Below, one piece after another: positions 2,183-23,902 of a stretch of DNA of 32,378 bases; within the stretch, counting starts at the first letter, position 1, and the number at the start of each line of letters is the position of its first letter. A model generated the notes under the pieces. That model had not been told where the DNA came from. It saw only the letters and a list, made by a program, of their open reading frames with translations, and did no database searches. The stretch covers positions 1 to 32,378 of the forward strand of contig JAGLLT010000012.1 in assembly GCA_023140385.1 (NCBI GenBank). Reading direction: 5' to 3'. The translations under genes and the position numbers were made by a program. Origin of the DNA: Candidatus Omnitrophota bacterium. Lineage in GTDB: Bacteria > Omnitrophota > Gorgyraeia > JAGLLT01.

Positions 2183-2198
2183 CCGTAAGTAATTAATT

Positions 2199-9099: not shown

Positions 9100-9164
9100 T
9101 TTATCCTCCTTCCGAACAATTAATATACGGAATACGTTTTTTGCTATCCATTATAGATATCTGC

Positions 9165-9623
9165 CTACAAATTTAACAAACTCCATTGACTTAAATACTT
9201 TTCTTTAGGATCATCAAATTTTCTCATTTGATTATCATTATGTTTTTGACCCTTTTTGCCTGGCGTTTTCAACCAGTTTACATGCCCGTCTTTAACATAT
9301 TTTGCAACGACATTGCTTGGCACTACAAAAAAATCTGGATGCTTTTGATTGTTATTAAGATTCACAAAAACATAAAATAAATTATCCGCAAAATAATCCT
9401 CTGCCTTTTTGTTGAGTATCCAAGTTCTCTTTGAGCTACTATTTGTTTTTACTTGAATGCTAATAGTTTTAGAGGCATTTGAATTTGAACAAAGAATGTC
9501 AACTCCTTTTGTGTTTCTCAATGTTATTGAAGCGATATATCCTTGCATTGATAGTTCAGCAGCTACAAGATACTCTCCAGATACTCCTGCCAAAACTGTA
9601 TTTAATTTTCCCATGTCTTGCAA
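9165..9623 (-). CDS. Small PD-(D/E)XK-superfamily nuclease-like protein
   Basis: GEYLVAAEL helix, then GVDIL...IQVKT (E...D...QxK catalytic pattern). Confidence 0.65.
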   Translation of the reverse strand: MQDMGKLNTVLAGVSGEYLVAAELSMQGYIASITLRNTKGVDILCSNSNASKTISIQVKTNSSSKRTWILNKKAEDYFADNLFYVFVNLNNNQKHPDFFVVPSNVVAKYVKDGHVNWLKTPGKKGQKHNDNQMRKFDDPKEKYLSQWSLLNL

Positions 9624-9733
9624 CTTATTCCTTTTAATAGTTTCTTAAAATAGTGTTGAGTAATATTATTAATACTATATGACATAATTATACCAAACAC
9701 TACGGATAATCTATCTCTATAGCAGTTGATGCT

Positions 9734-9801
9734 ATATAACGCTGATATTATCTGTTAAAAATGGCGTAACTTTTTTTGTCAGGTGCATTCTTTTATTGGG
9801 C
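9734..9801 (-). repeat. Degenerate integron attC-like site
   Basis: Minus strand: GCCCAAT overlapping the upstream stop codon, then AAAAGAATGCACCTGAC (attC-like left arm), ending CAGCGTTATAT; the right L box does not pair. Confidence 0.45.
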
Positions 9802-10545
9802 ATCTTTTTTCTTTTCGGTTGTAATAGCATCACGAAGCCGATAGTCCTCGACAACCGCCAGCGCCTTTTTCTGAATCTCATTGGCAGCCGTCGTATCTCC
9901 CAAAGCAACAGCCACTTCAATTAAACGAAGACTTTCTTCAACAAAATGATCTTCACTGTATGCTTTGAAGTCCATTCTTCCGATTTTCGGATCGTTATAG
10001 AGTGTAGTGTCATGATCGTATGCTGCCTTCACGCGAGTGAATTCTCGGACTAGATTGCCCATATATTTCCGCGCAAGATCGAAGCGTTTAGCATCAATTA
10101 CTTCGTCTTTTGCGATATTCCAGCATTGCTTAGCCAATTTAGGATTCTCCTTGTCAAGGTATTCAAACAATTCGATCGTTTTGCTCCCTTCCTCAAGCGT
10201 CTCGTTTAAAGACGATACATCATGAAACAACGAAGAGTTGCCTTCACCCATTTCTATTTGATGTGCCTTTCGGTCACGTGTCTCTATGAGGGCCTTTTTT
10301 GCTGGTGGATAGACGTCGCCAAGGTCCTTCCAGTAGCCCAAAGCAAATGACAAGCGCACCCCGTACATCGCAGGCTCATGTTCAAGCGCATGGTCATGAA
10401 ACCAGATATACCTCTCAAGGGCTTCCTCATGCTTTCCTTGGTGAACCATTTCCCGGGTGTCACTCAGATAATTATTCATATCCTCTGCTTGCACCTGAGA
10501 AGACAGCACTATCAATGCAATGATCATGCCAAGTAACGTTCTCAT
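9793..10545 (-). CDS. Secreted alpha-helical (TPR-like) hypothetical protein; probable gene cassette
   Basis: AGGAGG RBS before the ATG at 10545; signal peptide ending VQA-E; helical repeat-like sequence. Confidence 0.65.
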   Translation of the reverse strand: MRTLLGMIIALIVLSSQVQAEDMNNYLSDTREMVHQGKHEEALERYIWFHDHALEHEPAMYGVRLSFALGYWKDLGDVYPPAKKALIETRDRKAHQIEMGEGNSSLFHDVSSLNETLEEGSKTIELFEYLDKENPKLAKQCWNIAKDEVIDAKRFDLARKYMGNLVREFTRVKAAYDHDTTLYNDPKIGRMDFKAYSEDHFVEESLRLIEVAVALGDTTAANEIQKKALAVVEDYRLRDAITTEKKKDAQ

Positions 10546-10625
10546 ATATCCTCCTTTGTTCAATAATTAACACACTATCTTTGTTTTTTAAGGAATTTTA
10601 ATACTATATTCTTCACCTCTTTCTC

Positions 10626-11183
10626 TCAATCTAACCAAATATCAGTAACTATATCAAATAAATCCACATTGTCATAATCCGCCGGTAAAATATTCCATGC
10701 CGGTTTATCAAACAAATTATAATTCTGTTTAAAAAATCCATTTACTATCAGCTCTGAACATATCAATTTTTTATGGCTATCAAAAAGATTATGAACTTTT
10801 ACATATGCATTGCCAAACCCGAACCACCCGACAAGGAAGTTTAAAAGTTGAGGAAAATCATAAGGTGTGTTGTTCATTGCGGCCCACCACAATGCTACCT
10901 TTATTTTATCTTTTTCCTTTTCCCAATATTTTTTTCTCAAAACTCTTATTTCAATACCTTTCTCAACATAGTCCTTTTGCAAATTACAAGTTCTTGATTT
11001 TGGAACCTGGCCTTCAACCAAATCATAGCCTCCAATGCTTCCCGCCACATGCGTCCATTTGCTACTTTCGCCATACCCATATTTTTCCTGAATCTTAATA
11101 GTAACTCTAGTCCCGCTCGCAAATAGTATCACATCTCCTATTTTAATCTTATTAGGATCAATTTGTTTACTGTTCTGCATCAT
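10626..11183 (-). CDS. Permuted papain-like NlpC/P60 (YiiX/YebB, peptidase C92-like) enzyme
   Basis: KIGDVIL, WTHVAG (catalytic His first), PYDF, LICSELI (catalytic Cys late). Confidence 0.8.
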   Translation of the reverse strand: MMQNSKQIDPNKIKIGDVILFASGTRVTIKIQEKYGYGESSKWTHVAGSIGGYDLVEGQVPKSRTCNLQKDYVEKGIEIRVLRKKYWEKEKDKIKVALWWAAMNNTPYDFPQLLNFLVGWFGFGNAYVKVHNLFDSHKKLICSELIVNGFFKQNYNLFDKPAWNILPADYDNVDLFDIVTDIWLD

Positions 11184-11229
11184 ATTAACCTCCTACAAGA
11201 ATAAGCCTTGTATCTATCCACCCCATATA

Positions 11230-11541
11230 TCACCCTTGTAAATTTTTAAATTTAAACAAAAATATTCCAAAAATTACGACATTTACTAAATCAACAAAAA
11301 TCCAAAATTCTCGACCGAAATAAAGTGGTATAACTGGATTAAACACAAGAGCGAGCAACCCCATTATCCATGCCCAGCGAATCCTTTGTTTCTTGTAAGA
11401 AACCCATGCTAAGAAAATAGCCGTAAAGCAAACAACAAGCCTTAGTAATGTATAGTAACCATAAGGCAATGGTAAGATTGCCAATAAAAGCATTACAATT
11501 GATGCAATAACAGGTGGTTTTATCGAAATCTTTGTGTCCAT
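11230..11541 (-). CDS. Small membrane protein, DUF6804-like
   Basis: LPYGYYTLLRLVVC...LVFNPVIPLYFGREFWIFVD pattern; start moved to the ATG at 11541, which has an AGGGG RBS. Confidence 0.65.
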   Translation of the reverse strand: MDTKISIKPPVIASIVMLLLAILPLPYGYYTLLRLVVCFTAIFLAWVSYKKQRIRWAWIMGLLALVFNPVIPLYFGREFWIFVDLVNVVIFGIFLFKFKNLQG

Positions 11542-11579
11542 ATAACCCCTTTGCCTTAATTTGCTTTGAGAGTAACTTT

Positions 11580-12002
11580 TTAGTCCCAATTTTTATTTTG
11601 ATCAAAATCAGACCATAAACCGGTTCCCTTTAAATCTGGTTGTCCGAATTTTGCATTATATTCTTTTGTGAATTTCATTTGTTTTTCAACGGCATTATCA
11701 AGATGGCGTTTCCATCCCCTCACATCAATACCATATTTTTCTTTATCATTATCTTGCAAGTCAAGAGACACAAGGGATCCTATTCTTATATTTGTTTCTT
11801 TTCCGTTCAAATCCTCAAAATATATTTTCGAATTACCCATAACACTTTGAATCTCTGACCACCAAAAATGTGGAAGTTTAGACTTAAATATTATTTTATA
11901 GTACCTCTTTTTAAAGAATGAAGTACCCTGCAATAAATAAGTATATACGTAAATATGGCTTTCTTTTTTCATGTCAGCAAATTCTAAAACTTTTAATTTC
12001 AT
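11580..12002 (-). CDS. Hypothetical protein
   Basis: 140-aa ORF with a GAGGAGG RBS, in operon orientation. Confidence 0.6.
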   Translation of the reverse strand: MKLKVLEFADMKKESHIYVYTYLLQGTSFFKKRYYKIIFKSKLPHFWWSEIQSVMGNSKIYFEDLNGKETNIRIGSLVSLDLQDNDKEKYGIDVRGWKRHLDNAVEKQMKFTKEYNAKFGQPDLKGTGLWSDFDQNKNWD

Positions 12003-12020
12003 TAAATCCTCCTCTAAGAA

Positions 12021-12653
12021 TTATTCATCATATTTAACATCATCTACGTCAGGATCTTTATTCAAGTTTTTATCCTCTTCGATTAAATCAATATCTTCAA
12101 TTTGATCAGTGCTATCTGAAGTGCCCCCAACATCAATAACATCCTTTGATTGAATAAATTCGCCTGATATTCTTTTTTCCACTAGCGTTAATAGCCAGAT
12201 CCCATAAAAGCGCATACCATAGGTAAAAATAAGTCCTAATATTATTGAAAACCCCGCACCCCATTGCCCCTTAAAGAAAAGTCCAATGGCCGCGATTGGT
12301 GATACTATTTGAAACATAAACATAAAAAAGAAAGCTATCCATCCTAAATAATAAAATATGGTCAAGAAAGAAAACATGAATACTGATGCACCAACTATAT
12401 GAGAAAAAATAATCGATAATCCTGCGAGGTGATTATGAAGGCTTTTAAATAAAGACAATGGCAAAATAATTAACAGGAACAATCCTATGGAAGCGCCTGC
12501 TAATACAGATATTATTGGGTACAGAAATTCAGAAACCTTAAGGATGCCGAAAATGAAGATAAATGGGATCATGAGAAAACCCAGGAACATAAGGACACCT
12601 AAAATGCCTGAACCTAAACCCTTAATTTTGTCCTTAATATTAAATCCGGCCAT
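12021..12653 (-). CDS. Membrane protein with an acidic C-terminal tail
   Basis: About 5 TM segments and a D/E-rich tail; AGGAGG RBS. Confidence 0.7.
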   Translation of the reverse strand: MAGFNIKDKIKGLGSGILGVLMFLGFLMIPFIFIFGILKVSEFLYPIISVLAGASIGLFLLIILPLSLFKSLHNHLAGLSIIFSHIVGASVFMFSFLTIFYYLGWIAFFFMFMFQIVSPIAAIGLFFKGQWGAGFSIILGLIFTYGMRFYGIWLLTLVEKRISGEFIQSKDVIDVGGTSDSTDQIEDIDLIEEDKNLNKDPDVDDVKYDE

Positions 12654-12670
12654 AAAGCCTCCTGGTTACT

Positions 12671-13603
12671 TCAGAAAAACCATGCTCTATTCCTAATGAT
12701 AGGAATTAATACTGTTAAAATCGGCATAACAATTAAAAATGTGACTATCTTAAATTTTCTGAATTTCACTTGTTTGTTCTTAACTGCTTCAATTCCTATA
12801 GCAAATAGTTTTAAAGAAACGGCAAGCAAAACAAATGGTATTAATATAACTATCAAAACGCCCACAAAATATCCCTTACTAAAAAAATCTGACCAATTAC
12901 TAACGTCGGTAATCGATTTGGAGCCAGTATAGAAAGCAAAAACTGATAATTTGCTTAAAAACTCAAGTATAGGGTTATAGGCAATAGTCATAAGAAACCA
13001 GAACTTTTTTGATAAACCGTAAAAAAAGAAATTAGTCCTATCTTTTTTATCTGAATAATCAAATTTGGCAGCTATTTTTGCCCCAATGAACGATCCAATT
13101 AAAACGGCAGTTATCTGTATTATCAATATATAAAGAAGTGAATCCGGCCAATCGCCTTCGAAGAATTGACCTTTAAAAATAAAAAGACCTGCCAGTAGCA
13201 AGGCTAACCAATATTTCATTAAGAGGCCTACCGTCAAATATATCCATGTTCTCAAACCTTTAAACCAATAGGCGAATAAACCGACAAAAAATATGCTACA
13301 TATAAAGTCGAAAATATATATTAAGGAATCAATGAAATGGCTTTGGAATTCTGAACTGAATATTTCAAGTTCGATGGATCGTTCATAAAATACTGTAATC
13401 ACATGACCTATGTTTGTGAAATACGAGAAACTCAAATAGAGAAGGAATATTGCCGCAAAACTGATCTGCTTGATAGTGCGGGAGGATTTATTTTTCTTTA
13501 CTTTAGCCGGTTTAATGGCGGGTAATTGTGTTCCACAAAATCCGCAAAACTTTGCTTCTACGCTTATATCTTTATTGCAATTAGGGCATTTCCTAAGGTT
13601 CAC
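12671..13603 (-). CDS. Zinc-ribbon-domain multi-TM membrane protein
   Basis: CPNC-x10-CGFCG at the N-terminus, followed by about 7 TM segments; GGAGAG RBS. Confidence 0.75.
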   Translation of the reverse strand: MNLRKCPNCNKDISVEAKFCGFCGTQLPAIKPAKVKKNKSSRTIKQISFAAIFLLYLSFSYFTNIGHVITVFYERSIELEIFSSEFQSHFIDSLIYIFDFICSIFFVGLFAYWFKGLRTWIYLTVGLLMKYWLALLLAGLFIFKGQFFEGDWPDSLLYILIIQITAVLIGSFIGAKIAAKFDYSDKKDRTNFFFYGLSKKFWFLMTIAYNPILEFLSKLSVFAFYTGSKSITDVSNWSDFFSKGYFVGVLIVILIPFVLLAVSLKLFAIGIEAVKNKQVKFRKFKIVTFLIVMPILTVLIPIIRNRAWFF

Positions 13604-13636
13604 TTAAAACTCTCCAATATAATTTTAAGATGATAT

Positions 13637-13996
13637 TTAATCCTCAAAAGTTATATCTTCTTCTGAAGATTGTGATTTATTTTTTGGATGGTCTTCTACT
13701 CCTATTAGTAATTCCGTATCGCCAAACCCAATAGTGTCCCCTTTTGTCAACTCAATTTTTCCATGAACTTGACAATTGTTTACAAATGTTCCATTTGTAC
13801 TGTCGAGATCCTCAATTAAACAGATATCACCCTCCCAATATATAATAGCATGCCTCCTCGAACAAAAATCGTCATATCCTATACGTATATTTGCTTCCTC
13901 ACTTCGGCCTATTAGAATCTTGGAATCTGATTTTACGAAGTATTTATGCCCTTTTAGGGGGCCTGAAACAACAAGCACAACAACAAGTTTTGTCAC
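13637..13996 (-). CDS. Stand-alone FHA-domain protein
   Basis: IGRS, SRRHA, IEDLDSTNGTFVN, GDTIGFG; all conserved pThr-binding residues present; start overlaps the kinase stop. Confidence 0.93.
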   Translation of the reverse strand: MTKLVVVLVVSGPLKGHKYFVKSDSKILIGRSEEANIRIGYDDFCSRRHAIIYWEGDICLIEDLDSTNGTFVNNCQVHGKIELTKGDTIGFGDTELLIGVEDHPKNKSQSSEEDITFED

Positions 13997-15057
13997 ATTA
14001 TTACTCCCTTTTTCCAGTTATTTAATGTTTCCGCGTATTTTCCCTTCAAATGTTTTTGATGGTCTTTGGGATGTTGCGCTATAGACTCTTCCAGTAGTTT
14101 AATAGCATCATTAAGCTTCGTATATTGCTTCCCAAGCTGAAGCGCTTTTTGTATATTTACATTCGGTACTTTAATTTTTTGAAGCTCATATTGCTCTATT
14201 GCGTTATAAAATTCCCTAGCAGTTGAAAAACGGTTTTTCATATCAGGTTCTAAGGCTTTTAGAATAATTTCATCCAGCTCGCCATCTAAATCTGTATTGA
14301 ATTTAGAAGGTGGGTCTGGCTTTTTATTACGGGATGCCTTTATGGCTGATTTCATTTCATTTTTCTTAGTTGCCTGATAACCACTCGGCATTTTATAGGG
14401 AGGAATACCGGTTACCATAATATAAAAAATAATTCCTGATGAGAAGACATCGCTGGCCGGTGATTCATAGTCCCAGAAACCTTCAGGAGGCAAATAGGCC
14501 AGTGTTCCGGCTGCTTCTGTAATTCTTGTAACCGGATCAACATGTTTAGCTAAACCAAAATCAGAAACCTTGGCAACAAGATTATTGTGCCGTATTGATA
14601 ACATGATGTTTTGGGGCTTAACGTCTCTATGAACTAAAGGAGGCTTTGTATTGTGCAGTTTTGATAAACCGCAACAAATATCCTTTTGAAGCTTAATCGC
14701 TATATCAATCGAAAGCTTAATCTCAGATTCAATATAATCAGCTAGCGTGCCACCTTCCACATATTCCATCGCAATATAGCAATATCTATTACCATCAAAT
14801 TTAAAGGTATTTGCTTCATATACTCGCACAACATTTTCATGCGTAATCTTTGAGAGGATATAAGCTTCGTTAAATAACACAGGTTCTTGCTCTTTTGATA
14901 TGCTTCCCTGATGGAATATTTTCAGTGCCTGAATACCTAAATATTTGTGGCGCACCTTATATACGCCACCGAAAGCTCCTTCTCCAAGGAATCGATCAAT
15001 ACTGTAGGTCTCCCGTATTTTCGTGTACTTTGGTATTAAAATTCTCTTTATTGTCAT
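13993..15057 (-). CDS. Hanks-type Ser/Thr protein kinase (soluble) with a short C-terminal helical/TPR-like tail
   Basis: LGEGAFGGV, ALK, HRDVKPQN, DFG, GTLAYLPPE, DVFSSG; no TM segment. Confidence 0.95.
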   Translation of the reverse strand: MTIKRILIPKYTKIRETYSIDRFLGEGAFGGVYKVRHKYLGIQALKIFHQGSISKEQEPVLFNEAYILSKITHENVVRVYEANTFKFDGNRYCYIAMEYVEGGTLADYIESEIKLSIDIAIKLQKDICCGLSKLHNTKPPLVHRDVKPQNIMLSIRHNNLVAKVSDFGLAKHVDPVTRITEAAGTLAYLPPEGFWDYESPASDVFSSGIIFYIMVTGIPPYKMPSGYQATKKNEMKSAIKASRNKKPDPPSKFNTDLDGELDEIILKALEPDMKNRFSTAREFYNAIEQYELQKIKVPNVNIQKALQLGKQYTKLNDAIKLLEESIAQHPKDHQKHLKGKYAETLNNWKKGVIM

Positions 15058-17555
15058 ATTTTCCGTATGCCTGCGTCACTCACCCTTTCACTTATCTTTT
15101 CTTGCTCATCTCGCGGCATTAAACTCCACAATTCAAACATTATGCTTTTCAATGAATCTAAATCTTGACGTTGCAAAGCAGCGCTTCCTTCATCAATTAA
15201 TTCTTCAGCTCTGTTTTTATCCGTAAAATTGCCTGGATCCTTTTTGACTTCTTGAAATGCAGAAACCCAAAACCCTGGCTGCCTGAACAATACTGCCCAT
15301 CTTATATTGATTATCTCTTCTGCAATCTTCTTGATCCTGTTAATATCTTTACTACCAATTGATTTCTCTGCCTCCTTTTTCAAGCTATATAATTGATCTT
15401 TATCATCATTGTTTCCATAAGAAGCGGTTATCTCTTCACAATCACTAACTATTTCATTGTATTCTTTCAGTGCTACTGGCCACTTGGCTAACTTCTCTAT
15501 AGAATCCAATTTTTGTTTTAACTCTTTCAAGTTTCGATCTGCTTTTTCCACAGCGTCAGGATCACCACCTTCAGCAGCTTGAATATCTGTTCTTATCTCT
15601 TTTATGCCTTCAGAAATATACGATTCAGACAGTTTATTCTCTATTGTCTTATCATTTGCCTGCATTATTTCTTGTTTTAATTTATTGAGCCTTTTTTCTT
15701 CACCATTGAGATCTGCCGCAATATGACCAGGCTCAAGCTTAGGTGATATTTTTTGAGTAACTATTCCGCTAATCTTTTTATCTAATAGCGGAATAAAAGC
15801 TTCTGCAGAAACAGCTCGTGACTGATCTACGCTAATTATTATTTCTACTTCACTATTTTCAGGAAGCGTTCTTGTAACGTCCGCCCCTTTAATCTGTAAC
15901 GTCCCAAGATGCCTATTTCTGTCTGCTATATCACTTTCTCCCTCCCATAGATGTATTTTTAATACGTCTTCATTCTCACCTGGCCGAACAGTTCGTGTTG
16001 TAAAATAGGAGAACGGCTTACTCCTTGCTGGCAAAGACTCACTTTTGGTCAAATGTTTACTAAGGGCTCCGTTTTCTAACTCTACCCCTATTGAACGGAT
16101 CAATGGTGGTTCCGCAACAGAGATACCCTGGGTAATCGTAAACGAATCTGGTTCAATTGGCACTTTATTTCCAGTTTTATCAAACAGCGCTAATGTAAAA
16201 TTATTAACTTTGTTTTCACGTAGATTTACATTTGCGAAAAAGGCATTATCTTTTATTTCTATCATACCGCTTTCCCAATCGCCGCCTGTTCTGTTTATTT
16301 GAACGCGCATACCCTCTGGCAGCTTCTCTTCTTCTTTGCTGGCGAAAAATCTACCTCCCACGGCGGGATCTATTTCTGTGGTCATCGGATTATACGCAAG
16401 CTTGACTGAAACTTTAGAATAATCCCTCTTTGTCAATTCATCAGGAATCAATTGCGAAGCCGCGAATATGGCAGCGCCTTGGGCAACAACTATTATCGGA
16501 TCAATCTTGCATTCAATTGGAATGCCAAAAGCATCCTTTAGTCTTTTTCGCACATAAGGAATTTGCGTGGGGCCGCCAACTAAAATAAGTTGAGATATAT
16601 CAGTAGGAGATAGCCCTTGGTTTTCCAAAACCGTACTAAATAATTGGATAGTTTTATCTATATAACATTCTATTAATGGAATAAATTCGCTTCTCTTAAG
16701 CGGAATAACGATATCAATTACCTTACCATTATTATCTTTATACCTATCACTATACACAACAATATCTGCTTCTTCACTTTGAGACAATTGTATCTTAGCG
16801 TCTTCGGCTGCACTTTTTAACCTCGCATTTAAGATTTGGTATTCTTTTGTCCTCCCTAATCCCGGTAAATTATATTCATTTGACAATACTGGATGTATTA
16901 TATTTTCAACAATTTTCCAATCGAAATCTTTTCCGCCCAAATGATTATCGCCAAAGTGATCAACAACACTTAATCTTCCTTCTTTTGCTGACATGATAGC
17001 TACATCGAATGTGCCTCCTCCAAGATCAAATACGATCCAATATCCTTTTGGCATTTTCTCAAGAAAACCGTAAGCAATTGAAGCAGCAATGGGTTCTTGG
17101 AGCAAAGGAGCATATTTTATTCCTGCGATTTTTGCTGCTCTTTGCGTTGCTTCACATTGGACTATCTCAAAATTGCAAGGAACTGTAATTACTGCGCAAC
17201 TAATTTCATCTTCCTCTGGTAAATTCTTTTTCGCAGTTATTTTTAAATCCTTTAAAATTTCTGCTGAAAGCTCTTCAGGGCTGAGTTTTTTATTACTTAA
17301 AACAAATTTTTTAACTTGTTGCGTCCCCATCCACCTTTTAAACTCTTCTACAGTATTATCGGGGTCATCAATAAGCCGTTCGTATGCTTTTCTCCCCACT
17401 CTAACAGTACCTTTTTCGTCTATCCTAACAACTGATGGGGTGAATTCTTCCCGCTTATAATTTTTAAAAACACGTACCTCACCATTTTCCATACATGCAA
17501 TTTCTGAGTTAGTTGTGCCTAAATCAATACCAAAATCTATTGTTTGTCTATTCAT
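15054..17555 (-). CDS. Atypical Hsp70-family ATPase (833 aa), not the housekeeping DnaK
   Basis: GIDLGTTNS, TVP, EPIAA, DLGGGTFD, LVGGPTQIP; ~100-aa insert before a divergent substrate-binding domain; long helical C-terminus. Confidence 0.92.
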   Translation of the reverse strand: MNRQTIDFGIDLGTTNSEIACMENGEVRVFKNYKREEFTPSVVRIDEKGTVRVGRKAYERLIDDPDNTVEEFKRWMGTQQVKKFVLSNKKLSPEELSAEILKDLKITAKKNLPEEDEISCAVITVPCNFEIVQCEATQRAAKIAGIKYAPLLQEPIAASIAYGFLEKMPKGYWIVFDLGGGTFDVAIMSAKEGRLSVVDHFGDNHLGGKDFDWKIVENIIHPVLSNEYNLPGLGRTKEYQILNARLKSAAEDAKIQLSQSEEADIVVYSDRYKDNNGKVIDIVIPLKRSEFIPLIECYIDKTIQLFSTVLENQGLSPTDISQLILVGGPTQIPYVRKRLKDAFGIPIECKIDPIIVVAQGAAIFAASQLIPDELTKRDYSKVSVKLAYNPMTTEIDPAVGGRFFASKEEEKLPEGMRVQINRTGGDWESGMIEIKDNAFFANVNLRENKVNNFTLALFDKTGNKVPIEPDSFTITQGISVAEPPLIRSIGVELENGALSKHLTKSESLPARSKPFSYFTTRTVRPGENEDVLKIHLWEGESDIADRNRHLGTLQIKGADVTRTLPENSEVEIIISVDQSRAVSAEAFIPLLDKKISGIVTQKISPKLEPGHIAADLNGEEKRLNKLKQEIMQANDKTIENKLSESYISEGIKEIRTDIQAAEGGDPDAVEKADRNLKELKQKLDSIEKLAKWPVALKEYNEIVSDCEEITASYGNNDDKDQLYSLKKEAEKSIGSKDINRIKKIAEEIINIRWAVLFRQPGFWVSAFQEVKKDPGNFTDKNRAEELIDEGSAALQRQDLDSLKSIMFELWSLMPRDEQEKISERVSDAGIRKI

Positions 17556-17558
17556 GCC

Positions 17559-18056
17559 TCACTCCTTTTTAGCTTTTTCTTTAGATTTTCCAACTATAAC
17601 TTCTCCATGAGATATAATTTTTCCTTTAAAATAAACAGATGGTTTTACTGTTTCCAGCATATTCATCTTACCATAAGGAAGATTATCAACCTCTTCAACA
17701 TGAAGTACTTTGACGGACATTCCATCGTTATAATCAGTATTTGCATGCTCAACAATTTCAATATCTTGTTTCTTAAAAATATCTTTAATTCGTCGAATTT
17801 GGTCTACAATTGAATTATCGATAGCGTTTTCACTAGCCTTACTTATCCTTTTATCAAGTCTCCACATCTCAATTGCAAATAAAGAAATAAGTTCAATGGA
17901 TGATATAAGTTCTGAGGCATCATGTGCATTCTCAGGTGATATAAGCTTACATCCGCTAGCAATACATCTTTCAAATTGAGCGCGGTCTTTGAAGAAATAT
18001 ATCAATCCTTTGTCATTTTTATTGGAAACCATCCTAATTTTTGGCTTTTGTGACAT
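17559..18056 (-). CDS. Divergent GrpE-like protein
   Basis: Helical N-terminal part, then IKDIFKKQDIEIVE...YNDGM...LETVKPSVYFKGKIISHGEVIVGK, which matches the GrpE beta-head pattern; directly upstream of the Hsp70. Confidence 0.65.
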   Translation of the reverse strand: MSQKPKIRMVSNKNDKGLIYFFKDRAQFERCIASGCKLISPENAHDASELISSIELISLFAIEMWRLDKRISKASENAIDNSIVDQIRRIKDIFKKQDIEIVEHANTDYNDGMSVKVLHVEEVDNLPYGKMNMLETVKPSVYFKGKIISHGEVIVGKSKEKAKKE

Positions 18057-18066
18057 GCAGCCCTCC

Positions 18067-19920
18067 CTATTTAACTTTTCTGTTGTAAGATTTCACTAAA
18101 TCATCATGCGTAGAAATATCTTGTTTATACGATTCGAATAGTCTTTGGTATTCTGAATATACATTATTATATGATTCAAGCATTGTGTTGTACTTATTGA
18201 TTTTTTGGTTGTATTTATCGAACAATTTATCTTTTCCAAACGACGTTCTCTTGATTTGCAAATCAAGTGCGTCTATTTCTGATTCCAATGCCTTTAGTTT
18301 GACGCCACTAGATTTCAGCGTTGCTTCCAAATCAAACAATCTACTTTCCTTCTCCTTTACTGTTTCAGCTAAAGCCTCACTTCTTGACTTCAGTTGGTAC
18401 AGGCTTGGGCTAGAACTAGAAGATTTACTTTTATATGAAGAAGTGCTTTTTGAAGTGCCGCCATTCGATGAATCATCATTCAAATTAACCATAACGACAA
18501 TAAATCCAATTAATAATATCCATCCAATAACAGACTTCCAATTTGAACCTGATGATGACTTTTTAGATGGATTATAACCTGCGGAACTTGAGGTTGATTG
18601 AGTAGACGCCCCTTCGTCATTATATTTACTACTCAAACGCGCACTTTCCATATTGCTTTTTGCAATTTCTTCGTCCTTTGCAAATTTTTGTTTAATATAT
18701 TGCGAACTAGCATACTCAAGTGCCTTTGTTACCATTTCATAGGCCTTTTGATAACCCCATTCACGCTTCTTTGCGGATATTGCTTTGTCTGCTGCCAGCA
18801 TATTATTAAGAATAATGCCCATATCTCTAAGATTACTTGCTAGCCCATCTCGGGCCAAGCCATAATCTGATATGCAATTAAAATCCACGATATTACCTTC
18901 CGCAATTATTTTCGAAACATTTTCTTCAAACCTAGAATATATATCTATAATAGTGTTTATTGGCTTGTTTTCTATTTGCTCAAATTCAGCAACTTCTTTA
19001 GATGAATTTTGACAATGTCTATTAATTAAAGTAACATGCGAAGCTAGTATTTCATTAAACCCTTCCCTTAAATATTCATATGAAAATGAGGATCCATTCA
19101 ATAAGGCAGCGTGCTGTTTAGTTCTTTCATAATCCTTAGACACAAGTGACTGAGATAAAAATCTGAAGTTGGGATTAGCTATATCACCTAAAAAATTATC
19201 GCGTATTTCTTGGATCTTCCTCACGGATAATCTTGGGTCATTAATTCTCTCGGCCTTTTCTCTTGTTCTTTCCCAGAATAATTCATTCGATGCAAGCAAT
19301 GAAATTCTGTTAATGGCAAATCTCCAATTTGTCCAGTGAGTTTCCGATAAATTGACGTTTCTTTTTTTCGCCGATTCGCTTTCTATTCTTAATTTTTTTA
19401 ATCTATTGCCACACTGTATGCAAAACCTATAATCTTGTCCAAACTGCATATTACACGTTGGACAAACCTCTTTAGTGAATGCGTCTACCTTATATTTAAG
19501 GTTCATCTCTCTTCCTATCACGCTACTATGAGATAAAATCATCTGGTTAACTAAAGCTGATACTTTCTCTTTCTCTGGGACATCAGAAGCAATAGTAGAC
19601 TTCCATAATTCATAAGAAGATTGGCGATTCTTATTAAACAAACAATCAAGTGCTTTTCTGTCACCGTCTGTATCAATCCAAAACCAGAAAATTTCTTCTT
19701 TTAGCCTAGAAATGGGGTTTTCCAGTCTTTGCAATGCATTAATAACACTTTGCTCACTTCTATCAACTTTTCCCATCCAAGAAAAGTCAAACTTATATGA
19801 CACACCGATACCCAATGACTTTTTTACTTTTATCTCATTAACCCGCTGCATTATCTCTCCAATGGAAGCATCAGAGGTTAACCCTAGCACTCTAAAAGCG
19901 TTATTTTGATATCTATACAT
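18067..19920 (-). CDS. J-domain-like protein (no HPD) with zinc ribbon, helical region, single TM and C-terminal coiled coil
   Basis: NAFRVLGLTSDASIGEI (J helix I/II-like), ALQRLENPISRL (helix III/IV-like), CPTC-x10-CIQC, TM VIGWILLIGFIVVMV, Ser-rich linkers, heptad-rich tail. Confidence 0.6.
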   Translation of the reverse strand: MYRYQNNAFRVLGLTSDASIGEIMQRVNEIKVKKSLGIGVSYKFDFSWMGKVDRSEQSVINALQRLENPISRLKEEIFWFWIDTDGDRKALDCLFNKNRQSSYELWKSTIASDVPEKEKVSALVNQMILSHSSVIGREMNLKYKVDAFTKEVCPTCNMQFGQDYRFCIQCGNRLKKLRIESESAKKRNVNLSETHWTNWRFAINRISLLASNELFWERTREKAERINDPRLSVRKIQEIRDNFLGDIANPNFRFLSQSLVSKDYERTKQHAALLNGSSFSYEYLREGFNEILASHVTLINRHCQNSSKEVAEFEQIENKPINTIIDIYSRFEENVSKIIAEGNIVDFNCISDYGLARDGLASNLRDMGIILNNMLAADKAISAKKREWGYQKAYEMVTKALEYASSQYIKQKFAKDEEIAKSNMESARLSSKYNDEGASTQSTSSSAGYNPSKKSSSGSNWKSVIGWILLIGFIVVMVNLNDDSSNGGTSKSTSSYKSKSSSSSPSLYQLKSRSEALAETVKEKESRLFDLEATLKSSGVKLKALESEIDALDLQIKRTSFGKDKLFDKYNQKINKYNTMLESYNNVYSEYQRLFESYKQDISTHDDLVKSYNRKVK

Positions 19921-19946
19921 TCATTCTCCTGCGAAATATTTTAATA

Positions 19947-20144
19947 TTACTTAATTCTTGCTCTTGTTTCTTCATCGTGTTTGCGCTTTACATACTTATC
20001 AATTTCTTGTCTAGTTATCCTATAGCCACCGCGCCTACCTTCCTTATAAGCCTTTATTTTCCCAGCTCGAATAAGCGCGCGTAAGTATTCTTCACTAACT
20101 CGTAACAAATCAGCAACTTCTCTTGTTAAATATATTTCTTGCAC
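19947..20144 (-). CDS. Excisionase/BldC-like HTH (HTH_17) DNA-binding protein
   Basis: YLTREVADLLRVSEEYLRALIRAGKIKAYK...YRITRQEID; GGGAG RBS. Confidence 0.85.
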   Translation of the reverse strand: MQEIYLTREVADLLRVSEEYLRALIRAGKIKAYKEGRRGGYRITRQEIDKYVKRKHDEETRARIK

Positions 20145-20201
20145 TTCAAATCTCCCTTTTTAAAAAAGTATTTAAAATAACCATAAGCACAATTAAATAC
20201 C

Positions 20202-20230
20202 ATTATATGCAATCTAATACATTGTGTCAA
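20202..20230 (-). promoter_or_regulatory. Consensus sigma70 promoter for the HTH-J-GrpE-Hsp70-kinase-FHA operon
   Basis: Minus strand TTGACA-CAATGTATTAGATTGCA (17 bp)-TATAAT, a perfect consensus. Confidence 0.8.
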
Positions 20231-20353
20231 TTATTTTTTCAATCTTTTACTAGGAAAAAACAGACGCAAAGGGCGGTGTGCACATCTCAACGGAACATTA
20301 GGAGACATTCTCTGACTACCTATGCTCTATGGGCATGACTGTTGCATGGGTTT

Positions 20354-21922
20354 TCATTCTTCCATCCTATTCAATATACCCTTTACATACGCATAATGCT
20401 TTTTTGGATTAGAAGTGCTCTTTTTGGCCACAATAGCAAACGCCTTCTTCACTTGCTCTTCACCAAAGGATTCCATCATCATTATGATATCTTCTACCGT
20501 CTGCGAGTCATTCTCCTTAAAGACTATCTTTGCGTGCTCTCTTGCTCTATTTAAACTCTTTGAGCCATAGGCTAACTCTAACCTATCCCACTCTGCCTCC
20601 AGCCGCTCCGGGTCATATAATGGTAATAGCTTATAGGATTTGGCTAAAAGGGTTTTGTAGGAATTTCCTTTAGGGCTGTCATAGGATACGTCTATAAGAT
20701 TTTCTCTTCTTAGCTCCTGCATCCCTCTACCTATAACCCACTTGCTTACATTAAAACGTTCAGCTAAGACATCCCCTGAAGAAAACCACCAGGGATTAGC
20801 ATTGCTTATGCTTACATAGGCTAAGTTAATAAAATAGCAAAATTTCGCCCTCATAGAGAGCTTTCTGCTCCATCCGTATTCCCAAAAATTATCCGGCACC
20901 TGGAAATACCATTCCTTTGGCGTTTTATAAATCTCGTCAGGATTATCATAATTTAATAACGTAACAGTCGCGTCCTTGCCATATTCCGGTTCAAATCTTA
21001 TAATCTCATAGGTGTCTTCAAGTTTTCTCAGGCTTTTTATAATCTGTCTTCTATAGCCGGTTCTTGTCATTTTATCACTCAAGCCTAAATCATCGGCTAT
21101 TTTTTCATAATTTAATATTATTTTACCTTGAGAGTTCCCATCAAATTCCCTTAAAAGTAACAAATATATATTAAAAGCTCTTTCATCGCGCTTTGTTAAC
21201 ATCCGGCCGGCTAATTTGGGATTCTCCAAAAGTTCCCATGATACAGGAACACTGCCCTCTGATATTGGCATACGAACTTTTTCATCTATCTTAATCTTCT
21301 TAAAATACTCATAAAGCTCACTTGCTAATCCTTCTGACTTTATCAAGGTGTTAGTCTCTACGTTTTTGCTAAACGCGTTCTCGCTCCAGTTAGCACTGCC
21401 TATTATGACAATCTCCTTATCTATCACTATTGTCTTGGCATGGGTATATGTGGTGAGGTTATCGTAATAAACGTCTATGCCTCCCTCATTGAGCATTTTA
21501 AAGCACCAGGCATTCTTACCCTCAGCTATCCATTTACCTTTATCCCGACGGTTAACAAAATCTATATTTTGATCCAGAATAACCCTTACATCCACTCCCC
21601 GCTTGTGAGCCTTCACCAACTCATCAACTATTTTATATACTTTTGAGTTTTTATGATAAGGGTTTAAACTTACCTGAAACATCACCATATATATTGATTC
21701 TCCTGCCTGCTCTATCGCTTTCTTAACGGCCGGATAATACTTTTTTCCACTTATATCCAGAACACCCGCGGAATATGAATTTTTTATGGGGGTATTTTCA
21801 GATATTTGCGCTGTGGAAGGAGTTGTGGTATATAGAGAAATACTTGATATGAAAAGGATAGCTGTCAAAAACAGAGTAAATCGTATTTTCTTTAACTTAG
21901 CTATCAATCTGCTTTCAGCCAT
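20354..21922 (-). CDS. PLD-family (single HKD, Nuc-like) protein fused to winged-helix and DnaD-like domains
   Basis: HAKTIVIDKEIVIIGSANWS; N-terminal hydrophobic segment; two HTH-like segments; C-terminal YAYVKGILNRM. Start probably 21922 or 21928 rather than 22003. Confidence 0.7.
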   Translation of the reverse strand: MAESRLIAKLKKIRFTLFLTAILFISSISLYTTTPSTAQISENTPIKNSYSAGVLDISGKKYYPAVKKAIEQAGESIYMVMFQVSLNPYHKNSKVYKIVDELVKAHKRGVDVRVILDQNIDFVNRRDKGKWIAEGKNAWCFKMLNEGGIDVYYDNLTTYTHAKTIVIDKEIVIIGSANWSENAFSKNVETNTLIKSEGLASELYEYFKKIKIDEKVRMPISEGSVPVSWELLENPKLAGRMLTKRDERAFNIYLLLLREFDGNSQGKIILNYEKIADDLGLSDKMTRTGYRRQIIKSLRKLEDTYEIIRFEPEYGKDATVTLLNYDNPDEIYKTPKEWYFQVPDNFWEYGWSRKLSMRAKFCYFINLAYVSISNANPWWFSSGDVLAERFNVSKWVIGRGMQELRRENLIDVSYDSPKGNSYKTLLAKSYKLLPLYDPERLEAEWDRLELAYGSKSLNRAREHAKIVFKENDSQTVEDIIMMMESFGEEQVKKAFAIVAKKSTSNPKKHYAYVKGILNRMEE

Positions 21923-21941
21923 TACCATTCTCTCTAAAATT

Positions 21942-22856
21942 TTATTTCCATGGCCCGGGAGCTTTCCATTTTTCATTAAACCTAATACCTTTATTGATTG
22001 CAACTAACGGCTCAATAAGAAACTTGTCTATCTCTCTAACTGTTGTGCTCAACTTTTCCGGCGCATGTTTAATATCTCCCTTCTTTAAAAAAGCCTTCCA
22101 TAATGTTTGCCGGTCAGATTTCTCATTATAAATTTCTTCAGCAAATAATGGCTTACATTGCGGCAAAGAAGTTTTACGGTTTTTAAATGTTCTTTTTAAC
22201 GCCTCGGAAAGTCTTGTCCCATCAAAGTTAAACTGATGCATAATAAGCCAAACATCATAAAAATCTTTCATTCTGCTGTTTAAAAAACCAAGTTTTACCA
22301 TAGTCTCAAATTTCTCACTGACAACACTCTCCGCCGGATATCCTTTAAGCTTAGGTTTTGGAAAATCTAAAATAACAGGATATTCAATTATTTTTGGCTT
22401 TGGATAAATAGTATCTCCAAAACCTATATCAACCTGCATAGAAATACGAGAACGCTCAAGTAATCCCAAAAACTTAACTCGTACCCCTTCATAATCGGCA
22501 TCTTCTTTTATTCGTTGACCTTTAATGTTTTTACAATCAAAGATAAGCCCATCAGAAACCACATCGATTTTACAAATATCCTTTATCATTTTCTCAATAC
22601 TAGATACCTGATTATCATATTGCGCTGAAAAGTCTATATCAAGGGTTGTCCTTCGTTCAGGCACATGCCATGCAGTAAACATCAAAGCCCCCTTAAGGAT
22701 AAACTTATCCGCATATTTAGACTGACTCACACGATAAAGAAATCTCTCCATGCCGTAATATTGGAGAACTTCAGAAAATGGGCGATTCGTTTTTTTCGCT
22801 TTATTCTGAAGCTGAGCCTTAATGGAGGCTTCTATATTTTTAATATCTTTTTTCAT
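21942..22856 (-). CDS. abiEii: AbiEii-family nucleotidyltransferase toxin (type IV TA)
   Basis: MERFLYRVS, FILKGALM, RTTLDIDF, VDIGFGD, SEKFE, NSRMKDFYD. Confidence 0.92.
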   Translation of the reverse strand: MKKDIKNIEASIKAQLQNKAKKTNRPFSEVLQYYGMERFLYRVSQSKYADKFILKGALMFTAWHVPERRTTLDIDFSAQYDNQVSSIEKMIKDICKIDVVSDGLIFDCKNIKGQRIKEDADYEGVRVKFLGLLERSRISMQVDIGFGDTIYPKPKIIEYPVILDFPKPKLKGYPAESVVSEKFETMVKLGFLNSRMKDFYDVWLIMHQFNFDGTRLSEALKRTFKNRKTSLPQCKPLFAEEIYNEKSDRQTLWKAFLKKGDIKHAPEKLSTTVREIDKFLIEPLVAINKGIRFNEKWKAPGPWK

Positions 22857-23455
22857 ATCATTGTTTCCAGCATTGGTTTAATAATTTTATGTACACGGCA
22901 GATTTTAGCGTATTTCATTATATCGAGTGGTTTTATGCCCTTCTCGGTAACCGCTATCCTAAGCGCGTCCCTGGCAATATTTACACCTATTCTATTGCGA
23001 AACTTAAAACAATCAGCAATCGTTTTAGCAAGGCTGTAAACTCTAATTTCATGTCCTTCAGCTTGATGTACATCAACGCCAGCATTCCAAGTTTTAACTG
23101 AAAAACGATAAAATCGTACTGGTGGGTACTTAATTCTATTGGCACGAGTCCCCGCGGGGATTGCAATATCTACATACCCGGGTATCTCATTCGTTGCTTC
23201 ATGAAAAAAAAGGGCAGACACAAGACAAATAATCCCTCTTGGCGCCTGAAGAGACGCAATGACAAGATCAGGATATGGCCCAAACGTATAATGAGTCATC
23301 CGGTAAAGCCCCCTGGCAATCTTCTCTATTTTACCTTCTTTCTCAAGTGCTCTAAGCGTATCTGGATGAAACCCCGCTTTTATAATTGAAGAAAACCGTG
23401 CAATGCCGCCATTTTTTTTGAAATAGTTGAGTATTTTTTCTGTTTTTTGTTTCAT
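22853..23455 (-). CDS. abiEi: AbiEi-family antitoxin/transcriptional regulator (type IV TA)
   Basis: N-terminal wHTH (GKIEKIARGLYR), ICLVSALFFH, VYSLAKTIADCFKFR; stop overlaps the toxin start; GGAGAGG RBS before the ATG at 23455. Confidence 0.9.
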   Translation of the reverse strand: MKQKTEKILNYFKKNGGIARFSSIIKAGFHPDTLRALEKEGKIEKIARGLYRMTHYTFGPYPDLVIASLQAPRGIICLVSALFFHEATNEIPGYVDIAIPAGTRANRIKYPPVRFYRFSVKTWNAGVDVHQAEGHEIRVYSLAKTIADCFKFRNRIGVNIARDALRIAVTEKGIKPLDIMKYAKICRVHKIIKPMLETMI

Positions 23456-23463
23456 AACCTCTC

Positions 23464-23519
23464 CGTATAAATTGTCACTACTTGTTAACAAGTATATACG
23501 TTTTATACGAACATGTCAA
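23464..23519 (-). promoter_or_regulatory. abiE promoter with an overlapping inverted-repeat operator
   Basis: TTGACA-17 bp-TATACT; perfect palindrome TACTTGTTAACAAGTA (23479-23494) with symmetric outer arms CGTATAAA/TTTATACG. Confidence 0.75.
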
Positions 23520-23618
23520 CACTTTTTCTTACCTAAATAATATGGTTTGAAACAGTTTCATTTTGTCAATATATTATAGTCATTTAAGAATAATTATAAA
23601 CCCTAAATCTATACCATT

Positions 23619-23639
23619 GTCCCACCTCGTAGGTGGGAC
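23619..23639. repeat. Short GC-rich palindrome (REP-like hairpin)
   Basis: GTCCCACCT-CGT-AGGTGGGAC, a perfect 9-bp stem. Confidence 0.5.
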
Positions 23640-23648
23640 GCAGCGCGC

Positions 23649-23699
23649 AAAAAAAAAGGGAAGTTGCTCCGCATCGTATAGTACGGAATAACTTCCCTT
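23649..23699 (-). terminator. Intrinsic terminator downstream of tRNA-Glu
   Basis: Minus strand AAGGGAAGTT...AACTTCCCTT stem followed by a run of 9 T. Confidence 0.75.
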
Positions 23700-23750
23700 A
23701 ATTTATGTAACCCCTTGTGATCACTTAAGTCGCAAGAGTATCCGTAGTGA

Positions 23751-23827
23751 TGGTAGCCCCAACGGGATTCGAACCCGTGTTACCGGAATGAGAATCCGGC
23801 GTCCTGACCAGGCTAGACGATGGGGCC
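23751..23827 (-). tRNA. tRNA-Glu (anticodon CTC)
   Basis: GGCCCCATCGTCTAGCCTGGTCAGGACGCCGGATT-CTC-ATTCCGGTAACACGGGTTCGAATCCCGTTGGGGCTACCA folds as a cloverleaf with encoded CCA. Confidence 0.97.
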
Positions 23828-23837
23828 GCGTCACAAG

Positions 23838-23866
23838 ATATTATCATTACGCTAACTTCATGTCAA
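23838..23866 (-). promoter_or_regulatory. Putative tRNA-Glu promoter
   Basis: TTGACA-17 bp-TAATAT, ending about 10 bp upstream of the tRNA. Confidence 0.5.
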
Positions 23867-23902
23867 TCAAAAAGTAGCAATAACGTCTCAATCAACCCTT
23901 CC

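Follow-up and report, generated by a model that had tools for sequence, protein, structure and literature searches.

A stretch of 32,378 nucleotides from a Candidatus Omnitrophota bacterium (GCA_023140385.1, contig JAGLLT010000012.1, positions 1-32,378; hereafter the window, to which coordinates refer unless another locus is named) carries, in an island at a tRNA gene, a conserved unit of five genes of about 6.5 kb that encode, in this order, a membrane adaptor, a small GrpE homologue (mini-GrpE), an atypical Hsp70, a Hanks-type Ser/Thr kinase and a stand-alone FHA protein. An earlier reading of the same DNA (the original prediction) had drawn a single operon of eleven genes, from a helix-turn-helix (HTH) gene through these five to a putative amidase gene, and had proposed searching other genomes for the same arrangement. 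We compared the window with 60 metagenome loci fetched with the adaptor alignment, plus one added genome locus, and found that the adaptor and mini-GrpE genes precede the Hsp70 gene, in that order, in all 26 related loci that hold an Hsp70, several of these being near-copies, so that they do not represent 26 independent events. In each of the 24 loci whose downstream sequence extends for 1100 bp or more, the kinase gene comes next after the Hsp70 gene (23 by blastp, L147 by tblastn), the FHA gene comes next after the kinase gene in each of the 21 loci with room for it (19 by blastp; L121 and L142 by tblastn), and the five-gene order persists down to 44-48% Hsp70 identity (L087, L142). Because this order recurs in every related locus that is long enough, the unit goes beyond chance, and we rejected the possibility that the five genes are chance neighbours. 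Thus, the predicted co-occurrence is found across related loci and the core of the predicted operon stands, but its extent to eleven genes does not, as the downstream genes are clade-specific or unique to the window; the HTH gene sometimes, and a DUF6804 gene often, accompany the five-gene unit.

The Hsp70 (833 residues) consists of a nucleotide-binding domain (NBD, residues 8-366), an insert of ~115 residues, a region resembling the beta part of the substrate-binding domain (SBD-beta, ~484-590; similarity to DnaK starts at residue 488) and a helical C-terminal part of ~240 residues without family, for which an atlas search with residues 590-833 returned unnamed clusters only. We considered that it might be a duplicate of the housekeeping DnaK and rejected this on account of family cut-offs, a separate DnaK in the same genome and its placement in a clade of its own. 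It scores below the cut-offs for DnaK (NF001413/TIGR02350: 285.4 versus 648 and 280.3 versus 822.55 bits) and HscA (TIGR01991: 259.6 versus 708.55 bits), with the NBD alone matching well, and the host genome (1.5 Mb, 92.7% complete) encodes its own DnaK on contig 7, which scores 881 bits versus 264 bits for the window Hsp70. In an NBD tree of 22 Hsp70s of ~830 residues (from the window, ten database relatives, nine fetched loci and two plasmids) and 19 DnaK, HscA and HscC rows (among them the DnaK of the host genome and three E. coli proteins), the ~830-residue Hsp70s split from all DnaK/HscA/HscC rows with support of 100/100; E. coli HscC groups with the DnaK rows, on a long branch whose exact place is unsure. 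The NBD is 33% identical to that of E. coli DnaK and lacks the region corresponding to DnaK residues 76-101, and the ATPase residues D11, K73, E154, D177 and T182 are invariant in 16 relatives and align by BLASTP to the catalytic and phosphate-binding residues D8, K70, E171, D194 and T199 of E. coli DnaK. The C-terminal half of the protein finds 103 clusters of near-equal length (515-855 residues) that are 24-100% identical, two of them named Candidatus Omnitrophota by NCBI. With its own GrpE-fold partner, its membrane partner and its separate clade, the Hsp70 thus belongs to a private set distinct from the housekeeping DnaK, as had been proposed.

The protein encoded just upstream of the Hsp70 gene (165 residues) had been called GrpE-like, and this call is upheld by fold matches as well as by bridging through more distant sequences. 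An AlphaFold (AF2) model built on an alignment with 21 homologues from related loci (mean pLDDT, the predicted local distance difference test score, 81.8) consists of two long helices and, after them, a beta domain, and the 11 best listed rows of a Foldseek search against the PDB are all GrpE chains (E values from 8.8e-5 to 0.047, probabilities of 0.90-1.00, TM-scores of 0.37-0.49), with later hits having E values above 0.3. By sequence, the mini-GrpE profile found no GrpE among PDB chains (the best hit is unrelated, E=0.42), and the window protein matched nothing in Pfam even at E<=10. In a library clustered at 50% identity, the same profile reached 2,373 representatives at E<=1e-3, of which 1,062 were also matched at E<=1e-10. 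Scanning 118 of the 150 best hits (the shortest ones were left out), we found that PF01025 is matched at E<=0.01 by 30 of the 118 representatives, always over the C-terminal half of the model, and that 2 of the 118 pass its gathering cut-off (25.8 bits). Mini-GrpE is without the long N-terminal part of GrpE. Judged by the predicted fold and the profile matches, it is a true, divergent GrpE homologue that lies outside the current PF01025 model.

From N- to C-terminus, the adaptor (617 residues) contains a J-like region (~1-80), a helical region, a Cys4 zinc ribbon (153-175), a helical domain (~193-438), a Ser/Thr-rich disordered stretch, a transmembrane (TM) helix (~463-485) and a coiled-coil hairpin (507-616), and its AF2 model (mean pLDDT 81.9) begins with a four-helix domain. 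Lysines precede the TM segment and acidic residues follow it, which suggests that the N-terminus is cytoplasmic and the C-terminus extracytoplasmic. The LysM domain, which binds peptidoglycan, is present at the C-terminus of 52 of 109 adaptor relatives (a PQQ beta-propeller is present in 2 of 109) and lies after the membrane segment in all six LysM relatives that were aligned, in agreement with this topology. Hits resembling the cell-wall-binding lipoprotein YkyA were obtained with two adaptor relatives and, weakly, with the window adaptor. The N-terminus reads like helices I and II of a J domain: an hhalign comparison with 37 J domains aligned 24 columns spanning these helices (P=1.5e-4, probability 51%), compared to P=0.15 for a reversed control. 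DnaJ clusters are found among the language-model neighbours of the adaptor at 0.76-0.79, under the meaningful level, and a Foldseek search with the whole model gave generic helical-repeat hits only. We treat the J-likeness as a lead, not as a finding.

The kinase looks active, and the FHA protein keeps its binding motifs. Residues G25/G27/G30, K46, E64, H143-R144-D145, N150 and D166-F167-G168 of the kinase are invariant in 18 sequences, its C-terminal helical hairpin is conserved, and its hydrophobic tail (ending in NWKKGVIM) includes Q311, Y312, W348 and G351, which are invariant in 18 relatives. The best NCBIfam match of the kinase is a PASTA-kinase family, below cut-off, and in PADLOC it matches generic kinase models such as PD-T4-6 (up to 198 bits); mad6, PglW and PASTA-kinase profiles match it as well. 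The FHA protein displays GR (30-31), SRRH (46-49) and STNGT (66-70), motifs with which FHA domains bind phosphothreonine (pThr), and its best NCBIfam match, again below cut-off, is FhaB/FipA. The predicted tie between an active-looking kinase, an FHA protein and the chaperone set is therefore borne out by intact motifs together with strict synteny.

Beyond the related loci, more distant full-length Hsp70s of this kind, with 26-34% identity, come from Pseudonocardia, Actinophytocola, Byssovorax, a Myxococcales metagenome-assembled genome, Clostridium, Bacteroidetes and Gracilibacteria. BLAST recognises an adaptor in Pseudonocardia, Actinophytocola and Byssovorax and a mini-GrpE in two of these, the Clostridium triad (L008) is accompanied by a Peptidase_M50 and a DUF6804 protein, and distant relatives are carried on seven plasmids. 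A conjugative Pseudomonas plasmid carries the triad by itself, adjoining transposases, and on the Haliscomenobacter plasmid pHALHY02 (L148, 10356-12170) the Hsp70 gene is followed by a Pkinase+AAA fusion beside the BREX genes for BrxL and PglZ; the product of this fusion gene, annotated as 'AAA family ATPase', comprises a kinase domain (27-288) and a Vps4/FtsH-type AAA domain (366-494). Because distant triads occur without a kinase within four genes, the triad of adaptor, mini-GrpE and Hsp70 is the old core and the kinase, with or without FHA, a recurrent add-on of some clades.

The cassette is mobile. Among 401 genomes of the phylum, the C-terminal half of the Hsp70 was detected in 2, the window's own included, and the sister genome G083, from the same family, has the same tRNA-Glu/AbiE island in a shorter form without the cassette. 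The AbiEi and AbiEii proteins of the two islands are 89% and 82% identical and a methyltransferase pair is 92% identical, compared to only 55-71% for core genes beyond the tRNA-Glu gene, and because of this difference the island content looks recently exchanged. Instead of the cassette, the island of G083 holds PemK-, MqsR/MqsA- and SocA-like genes, and it keeps a 34-residue remnant, 88% identical, of the 185-residue protein encoded at the far end of the window's gene run. In the window, neither convincing att-like direct repeats of the tRNA end (searched within 4000-24200) nor an integrase gene was found.

To place the neighbourhood of the cassette, we matched flanking proteins to PADLOC models at E<=1e-5, using 149 proteins of at least 110 residues from 23 cassette loci (13 of 162 having been dropped because their loci are near-duplicates) and, as control, 140 proteins around housekeeping dnaK from 20 loci. 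Counted per protein, 27 of 149 cassette flanks scored versus 12 of 140 dnaK flanks, about twofold more (Fisher p=0.024). The cassette-flank matches include AbiEi/AbiEii, ZacA (403 bits), PDC-S06 (931 bits), GajB, DpdF-like, HerA, IetA, CapH/CapP, PLD genes and restriction-modification methylases, whereas the dnaK-flank hits are all generic relatives (IscS, RecN-like, HtrA-like). The enrichment for defence neighbours is thus real in kind and modest in number.

Table 1. Features of the gene run and the adjoining island edge, with coordinates in the window.
Feature	Coordinates	Strand	Evidence
Promoter-like site TTGACA-17-TATAAT	20202..20230	-	12/12 sigma-70 consensus, pattern match
65-aa HTH_17/excisionase-family DNA-binding protein	19947..20144	-	PF12728 50.1 bits; TIGR01764 45.5 bits
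617-aa membrane adaptor	18067..19920	-	AF2 model; Pfam none
165-aa divergent mini-GrpE	17559..18056	-	AF2/Foldseek fold, sequence bridging
833-aa atypical Hsp70	15054..17555	-	PF00012 291 bits, NBD residues 8-366
354-aa soluble Hanks-type Ser/Thr kinase	13993..15057	-	PF00069 171 bits
119-aa stand-alone FHA protein	13637..13996	-	PF00498 69.4 bits, cut-off 20.7
310-aa multi-pass membrane protein, N-terminal zinc ribbon	12671..13603	-	PF13240 27.5 bits
210-aa multi-pass membrane protein	12021..12653	-	no family
140-aa product, no Pfam family	11580..12002	-	
DUF6804 small membrane protein	11230..11589	-	PF20619 88.7 bits
185-aa protein, possible permuted papain-like (C92/YiiX-type) amidase	10626..11183	-	PF05708 E=0.098
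PLD-family (DrmC-like) nuclease-like protein	20354..22003	-	PLDc_2 97.5 bits; PADLOC DrmC 47 bits
AbiEii	21942..22856	-	PF08843 140.8 bits; PADLOC 326.9 bits
AbiEi	22853..23491	-	PF13338 (AbiEi_4) 35.2 bits; PADLOC 213.9 bits
tRNA-Glu (CTC), variable-island edge	23751..23827	-	ARAGORN

The cassette lies in a minus-strand run that spans positions 20144 to 10626 and comprises 11 open reading frames (ORFs) at the predicted coordinates (Table 1). Six of the products are named by Pfam (HTH_17, HSP70, Pkinase, FHA, zinc ribbon and DUF6804), and the products of 617, 165, 210, 140 and 185 residues have no Pfam family at E<=0.01. The ORF coordinates agree with the tight spacing that had been claimed, with a gap of 3 bp between the GrpE-like and Hsp70 genes and overlaps of 4 bp each for Hsp70/kinase and kinase/FHA. 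A promoter had been placed 5' of the HTH gene, and it holds as a consensus match only: the site is the sole perfect sigma-70 consensus within 9000-24000, in a region with 71 promoter-like sites compared to 55.9 +/- 8.0 in shuffled sequence. The HTH_17 protein is likely a local regulator; 7 of the 33 related loci listed encode a homologue immediately 5' of the adaptor gene (L092, L093, L108, L117, L126, L132, L141), and the window protein matches the PADLOC model mad1 with 28 bits.

Downstream of the FHA gene, the gene content changes from clade to clade. Genes for the 310-residue zinc-ribbon and the 210-residue membrane protein follow the FHA gene together only in L090 and L108 among related loci (a weaker, 29% match to the latter lies 5' of the cassette in L135), 16 of 33 related loci and the distant Clostridium triad have a DUF6804 homologue, and the genes for the 140- and 185-residue proteins have a homologue in no related cassette locus. 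In other clades, the FHA gene is followed by genes encoding an RDD membrane protein that bears a zinc ribbon, membrane proteins of A24-like type or a TM-PLD protein. The original prediction saw a permuted NlpC/P60 enzyme in the 185-residue protein; His45 precedes Cys143 in its sequence, and the family assignment rests on a weak match to Peptidase_C92 (PF05708, E=0.098, 13.1 bits versus a cut-off of 27), its lone match in Pfam, and the gene is not conserved with the cassette. The protein had no sequence match in the PDB.

Several observations concern genes beside the cassette in related loci. In a LysM-type subclade (L097, L100, L102, L124, L135) a conserved soluble protein of ~188 residues, belonging to no Pfam family, is encoded after the FHA protein; in L103, L107 and L113 it is cut short or disrupted. 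L132 encodes after the FHA protein (16060-16785) a 241-residue protein that combines a zinc ribbon with a TM helix and a coiled coil; it resembles the outer C-terminal part of the adaptor and shares its Tyr-Asn-rich coiled-coil motif. Upstream, this locus has CapH/CapP-like and E1-E2-like genes. Past the end of the window's gene run, a 152-residue protein (9165-9623) matches phrog_29029, a phage family of unassigned function (E=3.5e-16), and a homologue of it is encoded next to a DUF6804 gene in L130.

The placement of the cassette in a tRNA island beside AbiE, as predicted, is confirmed by ARAGORN for the tRNA-Glu gene and by Pfam and PADLOC for AbiEi/AbiEii, whereas of the two nucleases announced nearby we found one nuclease-like gene (20354-22003). 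Its PLD domain covers residues 94-237, the other ~300 residues being without family, and the ORF, taken from its first TTG, overlaps the end of the AbiEii gene by 62 bp, the true start probably lying further downstream. The methyltransferase pair shared with G083 consists of a PCMT methyltransferase gene and a gene for an 802-residue spermine-synthase-like protein (1472-4607) and seems to belong to the exchanged island, not to the core genome. Next to it, a 423-residue protein (4668-5939) fuses PNP_UDP_1 phosphorylase and phosphoribosyltransferase domains; nucleoside-processing domains are effectors in some defence systems. A 310-residue Macro-NUDIX fusion protein is encoded among ordinary core genes (26971-27903), and in the island of G083 (L157) the PemK/MazF-like toxin gene lies at 9455-9793 and an MqsR-like/HTH-SocA(Panacea) pair at 16008-17421.

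How might these five proteins work together? We lean, with confidence just short of even, towards a reading in which the mobile cassette is a membrane-anchored, ATP-driven Hsp70 switch that gates the kinase and is used in conflict with phages or mobile elements. For trigger, direction of signalling, client and outcome we infer the following course. The adaptor, with its N-terminus inside and its C-terminus outside, would sense a disturbance of the envelope or cell wall, and its J-like cytoplasmic domain, although devoid of the His-Pro-Asp (HPD) motif, would load or trigger the private Hsp70. The Hsp70, reset by mini-GrpE, would bind or release the soluble kinase as its client, for which the conserved hydrophobic C-terminal tail of the kinase is a possible handle. 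Once active, the kinase would phosphorylate its targets, among which the Ser/Thr-rich juxtamembrane stretch of the adaptor is a candidate, and the FHA protein would read the pThr mark. The kinase itself could be the effector, causing growth arrest, or it could serve as a switch for the variable downstream cargo.

A use in conflict is the most likely one because the cassette is rare, resides in islands and frequently has defence genes as neighbours, yet taken by itself a role against phages or mobile elements remains a tentative proposal. The strict synteny, the folds, the intact active sites, the independence from the housekeeping DnaK and the mobility speak for the proposed switch, and so does the Haliscomenobacter gene for a Pkinase+AAA protein, which follows an Hsp70 gene and provides a kinase link in a distant branch.

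Several results weigh against the Hsp70 switch. The HPD motif is missing from the adaptor and from 22 aligned relatives, its place being taken by a loop of ~20 residues with invariant D45, F46, W48, G50, D53 and R54, and PF00226 is matched neither by the window adaptor nor by five distant relatives in Pfam searches; of the predicted J-like membrane protein there remains a membrane protein with J-like helices I-II, without the HPD motif or a J-domain family match. DnaK R167 aligns to Pro150 of the Hsp70, where the family pattern is [PV]LLQEP. In DnaK, R167 is the contact of the HPD aspartate; if this holds, HPD and R167 were lost together, such that the adaptor must act on the Hsp70 differently. 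The insert of ~115 residues replaces the short interdomain linker of DnaK, and therefore DnaK-style allostery cannot be assumed. No kinase is encoded within up to four genes on either side in the distant loci L005, L007, L008, L009 and L015 (Pfam), nor among the four selected neighbours of the distant triad in L006, and no kinase-Hsp70 fusion was found among the 120 best longer kinases or the 103 Hsp70 relatives. As for conflict, the five-gene core contains no recognisable killing effector, and the C-terminal half of the Hsp70 matched none of 50,697 phage records. The predicted enrichment in defence islands, which holds per protein, is not significant per locus, with defence hits in 15 of 23 cassette loci versus 11 of 20 dnaK loci (p=0.55), these loci not being independent since several are near-copies.

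A somewhat unlikely alternative is that the cassette serves envelope signalling outside immunity, as a PknB/PrkC-type receptor kinase split into separate proteins that are coupled by the private Hsp70, with the FHA protein relaying the signal to wall synthesis or division. The LysM domains in 52 of 109 adaptor relatives and the YkyA-like hits fit such a function, as do the best matches of the FHA protein to FhaB/FipA and of the kinase to the PASTA-kinase family, both of them sub-cut-off, and the same holds for a core without a killing effector and for the weak defence enrichment per locus. Against it speaks the patchy distribution, with the cassette present in 1 of 400 other genomes of the phylum and absent from the island of the sister genome, along with plasmid carriage and the repeated occurrence of defence genes as neighbours; moreover, no wall-synthesis or division genes are conserved beside the cassette in the loci examined.

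We consider it unlikely that the cassette is principally a chaperone for membrane proteins in the manner of HscC with DjlB/DjlC, for which the adaptor would recruit the Hsp70 to insert, extract or turn over membrane proteins, either those of the host or those encoded alongside (DUF6804, Zn-ribbon membrane proteins), with the kinase and FHA protein only tuning this activity. The kinase-free distant triads imply that the triad has a function of its own, DUF6804 is encoded in 16 of 33 loci and beside the distant Clostridium triad, genes for membrane proteins often follow the FHA gene, and a Peptidase_M50 or AAA+ domain is found beside some triads. However, it is the downstream membrane genes that vary by clade, whereas the kinase and FHA genes are constant in this clade and joined to the Hsp70 gene by translational coupling. 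Finally, service to the mobile element itself, be it island maintenance, exclusion of rival elements or counter-defence, is very improbable, since the excisionase/HTH_17-family regulator 5' of the cassette and its carriage on islands and plasmids are set against two negatives: in the loci examined, no gene for an integrase, a relaxase or replication is conserved next to the cassette, and phage records yielded no copy.

Whatever its use, the cassette is compact and joins, at the membrane, a private Hsp70 cycle with a kinase of eukaryotic type and a protein that reads pThr. Should the chaperone indeed gate this kinase, the cassette would be a bacterial counterpart of the chaperone-controlled kinases of eukaryotes, and it may constitute a new way of sensing envelope attack. 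Taken further, the Hsp70 switch would represent a new class of immune switch, in which an Hsp70 cycle, not a STAND, AAA+ or GTPase module, turns a disturbance of the wall, sensed by the HPD-less transmembrane receptor with its frequent LysM domain, into arrest by a Hanks kinase or into firing of cargo, with an FHA reader. We regard this extension as doubtful; if it is true, much of the chaperone 'dark matter' would serve in signalling or defence, given ~2,400 mini-GrpE representatives at 50% identity. At ~6.5 kb the cassette is tractable, and K73 and T182 of the Hsp70, K46 and D145 of the kinase, R31 and S46 of the FHA protein and the loop that replaces HPD offer themselves as targets for mutation.

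The original prediction did not recognise the gene set as a named system, and this still holds: no model in PADLOC-DB v2 matches the adaptor, mini-GrpE, the Hsp70, the FHA protein or the membrane proteins, and we found no paper on the system. As far as our search of the full-text literature reached, the five-gene cassette is undescribed, although the gene set could figure in supplementary neighbourhood tables (Kaur 2020; Bell 2024). The nearest descriptions come from predicted conflict systems. The GAP1-N2 GTPase conflict systems include Hsp70, GrpE and DnaJ-fused proteins, some with a kinase (Kaur 2020, PMC7159879), and thus likewise equip an Hsp70 with its own GrpE and J-type partner, but they are defined by the GAP1-N2 GTPase and FNIII-repeat proteins, and a Pfam scan of 35 window proteins gave no match to either a GTPase or an FNIII domain. 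CnuD of the CoCoNuT systems (type III), which are of the McrBC type, resembles our Hsp70 in having Hsp70-like NBD and SBD parts followed by a helical extension (helical repeats) and in occurring in defence contexts; it is accompanied by McrB/McrC homologues and has degenerate ATPase motifs, whereas the cassette has no McrBC and intact ATPase residues (Bell 2024, PMC11090510). Neither an McrB-like GTPase nor an McrC/DUF2357 partner was found in the window by Pfam, and in view of the missing GTPase and McrBC we rejected membership of the cassette in either group.

Among kinase-based systems, PD-T4-6 is a single-gene system whose generic kinase domain is matched by the cassette kinase. Stk2 is another kinase-based anti-phage defence. 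A fusion of kinase and HSP70 in Pirellula appears in a survey from 2005 (PMC1262709), and a 2026 preprint mentions Hsp70-like switches in single-protein architectures. Bacterial Hsp70s other than DnaK and HscA have hardly been studied, and a 2026 review calls these DnaK derivatives unexplored 'dark matter' (PMC13580251).

The chaperone set is reminiscent of HscC with DjlB/DjlC, a sporadically distributed, specialised Hsp70 with private membrane-anchored J proteins (Mayer 2021, PMC8215388). Both are extra Hsp70s encoded beside their own membrane-anchored co-chaperone, both are sporadic, and both are without the DnaK 76-101 region. HscC is 550-580 residues long, cooperates with genuine J domains that have HPD and presumably requires no exchange factor (PMC8215388), unlike the cassette with its 833-residue Hsp70 with insert and helical tail, its HPD-less partner, its GrpE-fold protein and its fixed kinase and FHA. 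With the canonical DnaK-DnaJ-GrpE system the cassette shares the ATPase residues, a GrpE-fold partner and an adaptor whose first two helices resemble a J domain, and it differs in the sub-cut-off score and separate clade of its Hsp70, the lack of HPD, the change of R167 to Pro, the replaced linker and the short GrpE.

On the kinase side, the cassette resembles the PASTA kinases PknB/PrkC with FhaA and FhaB/FipA in combining a Hanks kinase, an FHA protein, a wall-binding domain and a Ser/Thr-rich juxtamembrane stretch, but receptor and kinase are separate proteins, LysM or a coiled coil takes the place of PASTA, and an Hsp70 and a GrpE stand between them. In E. coli, DjlA-DnaK-GrpE activates the Rcs phosphorelay, such that a membrane-anchored J-type protein switches an envelope kinase pathway. 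By analogy, the cassette might follow the same logic with other parts: where DjlA and Rcs rely on the housekeeping DnaK and a histidine phosphorelay, it would employ private chaperones, a Hanks-type kinase and an FHA reader.

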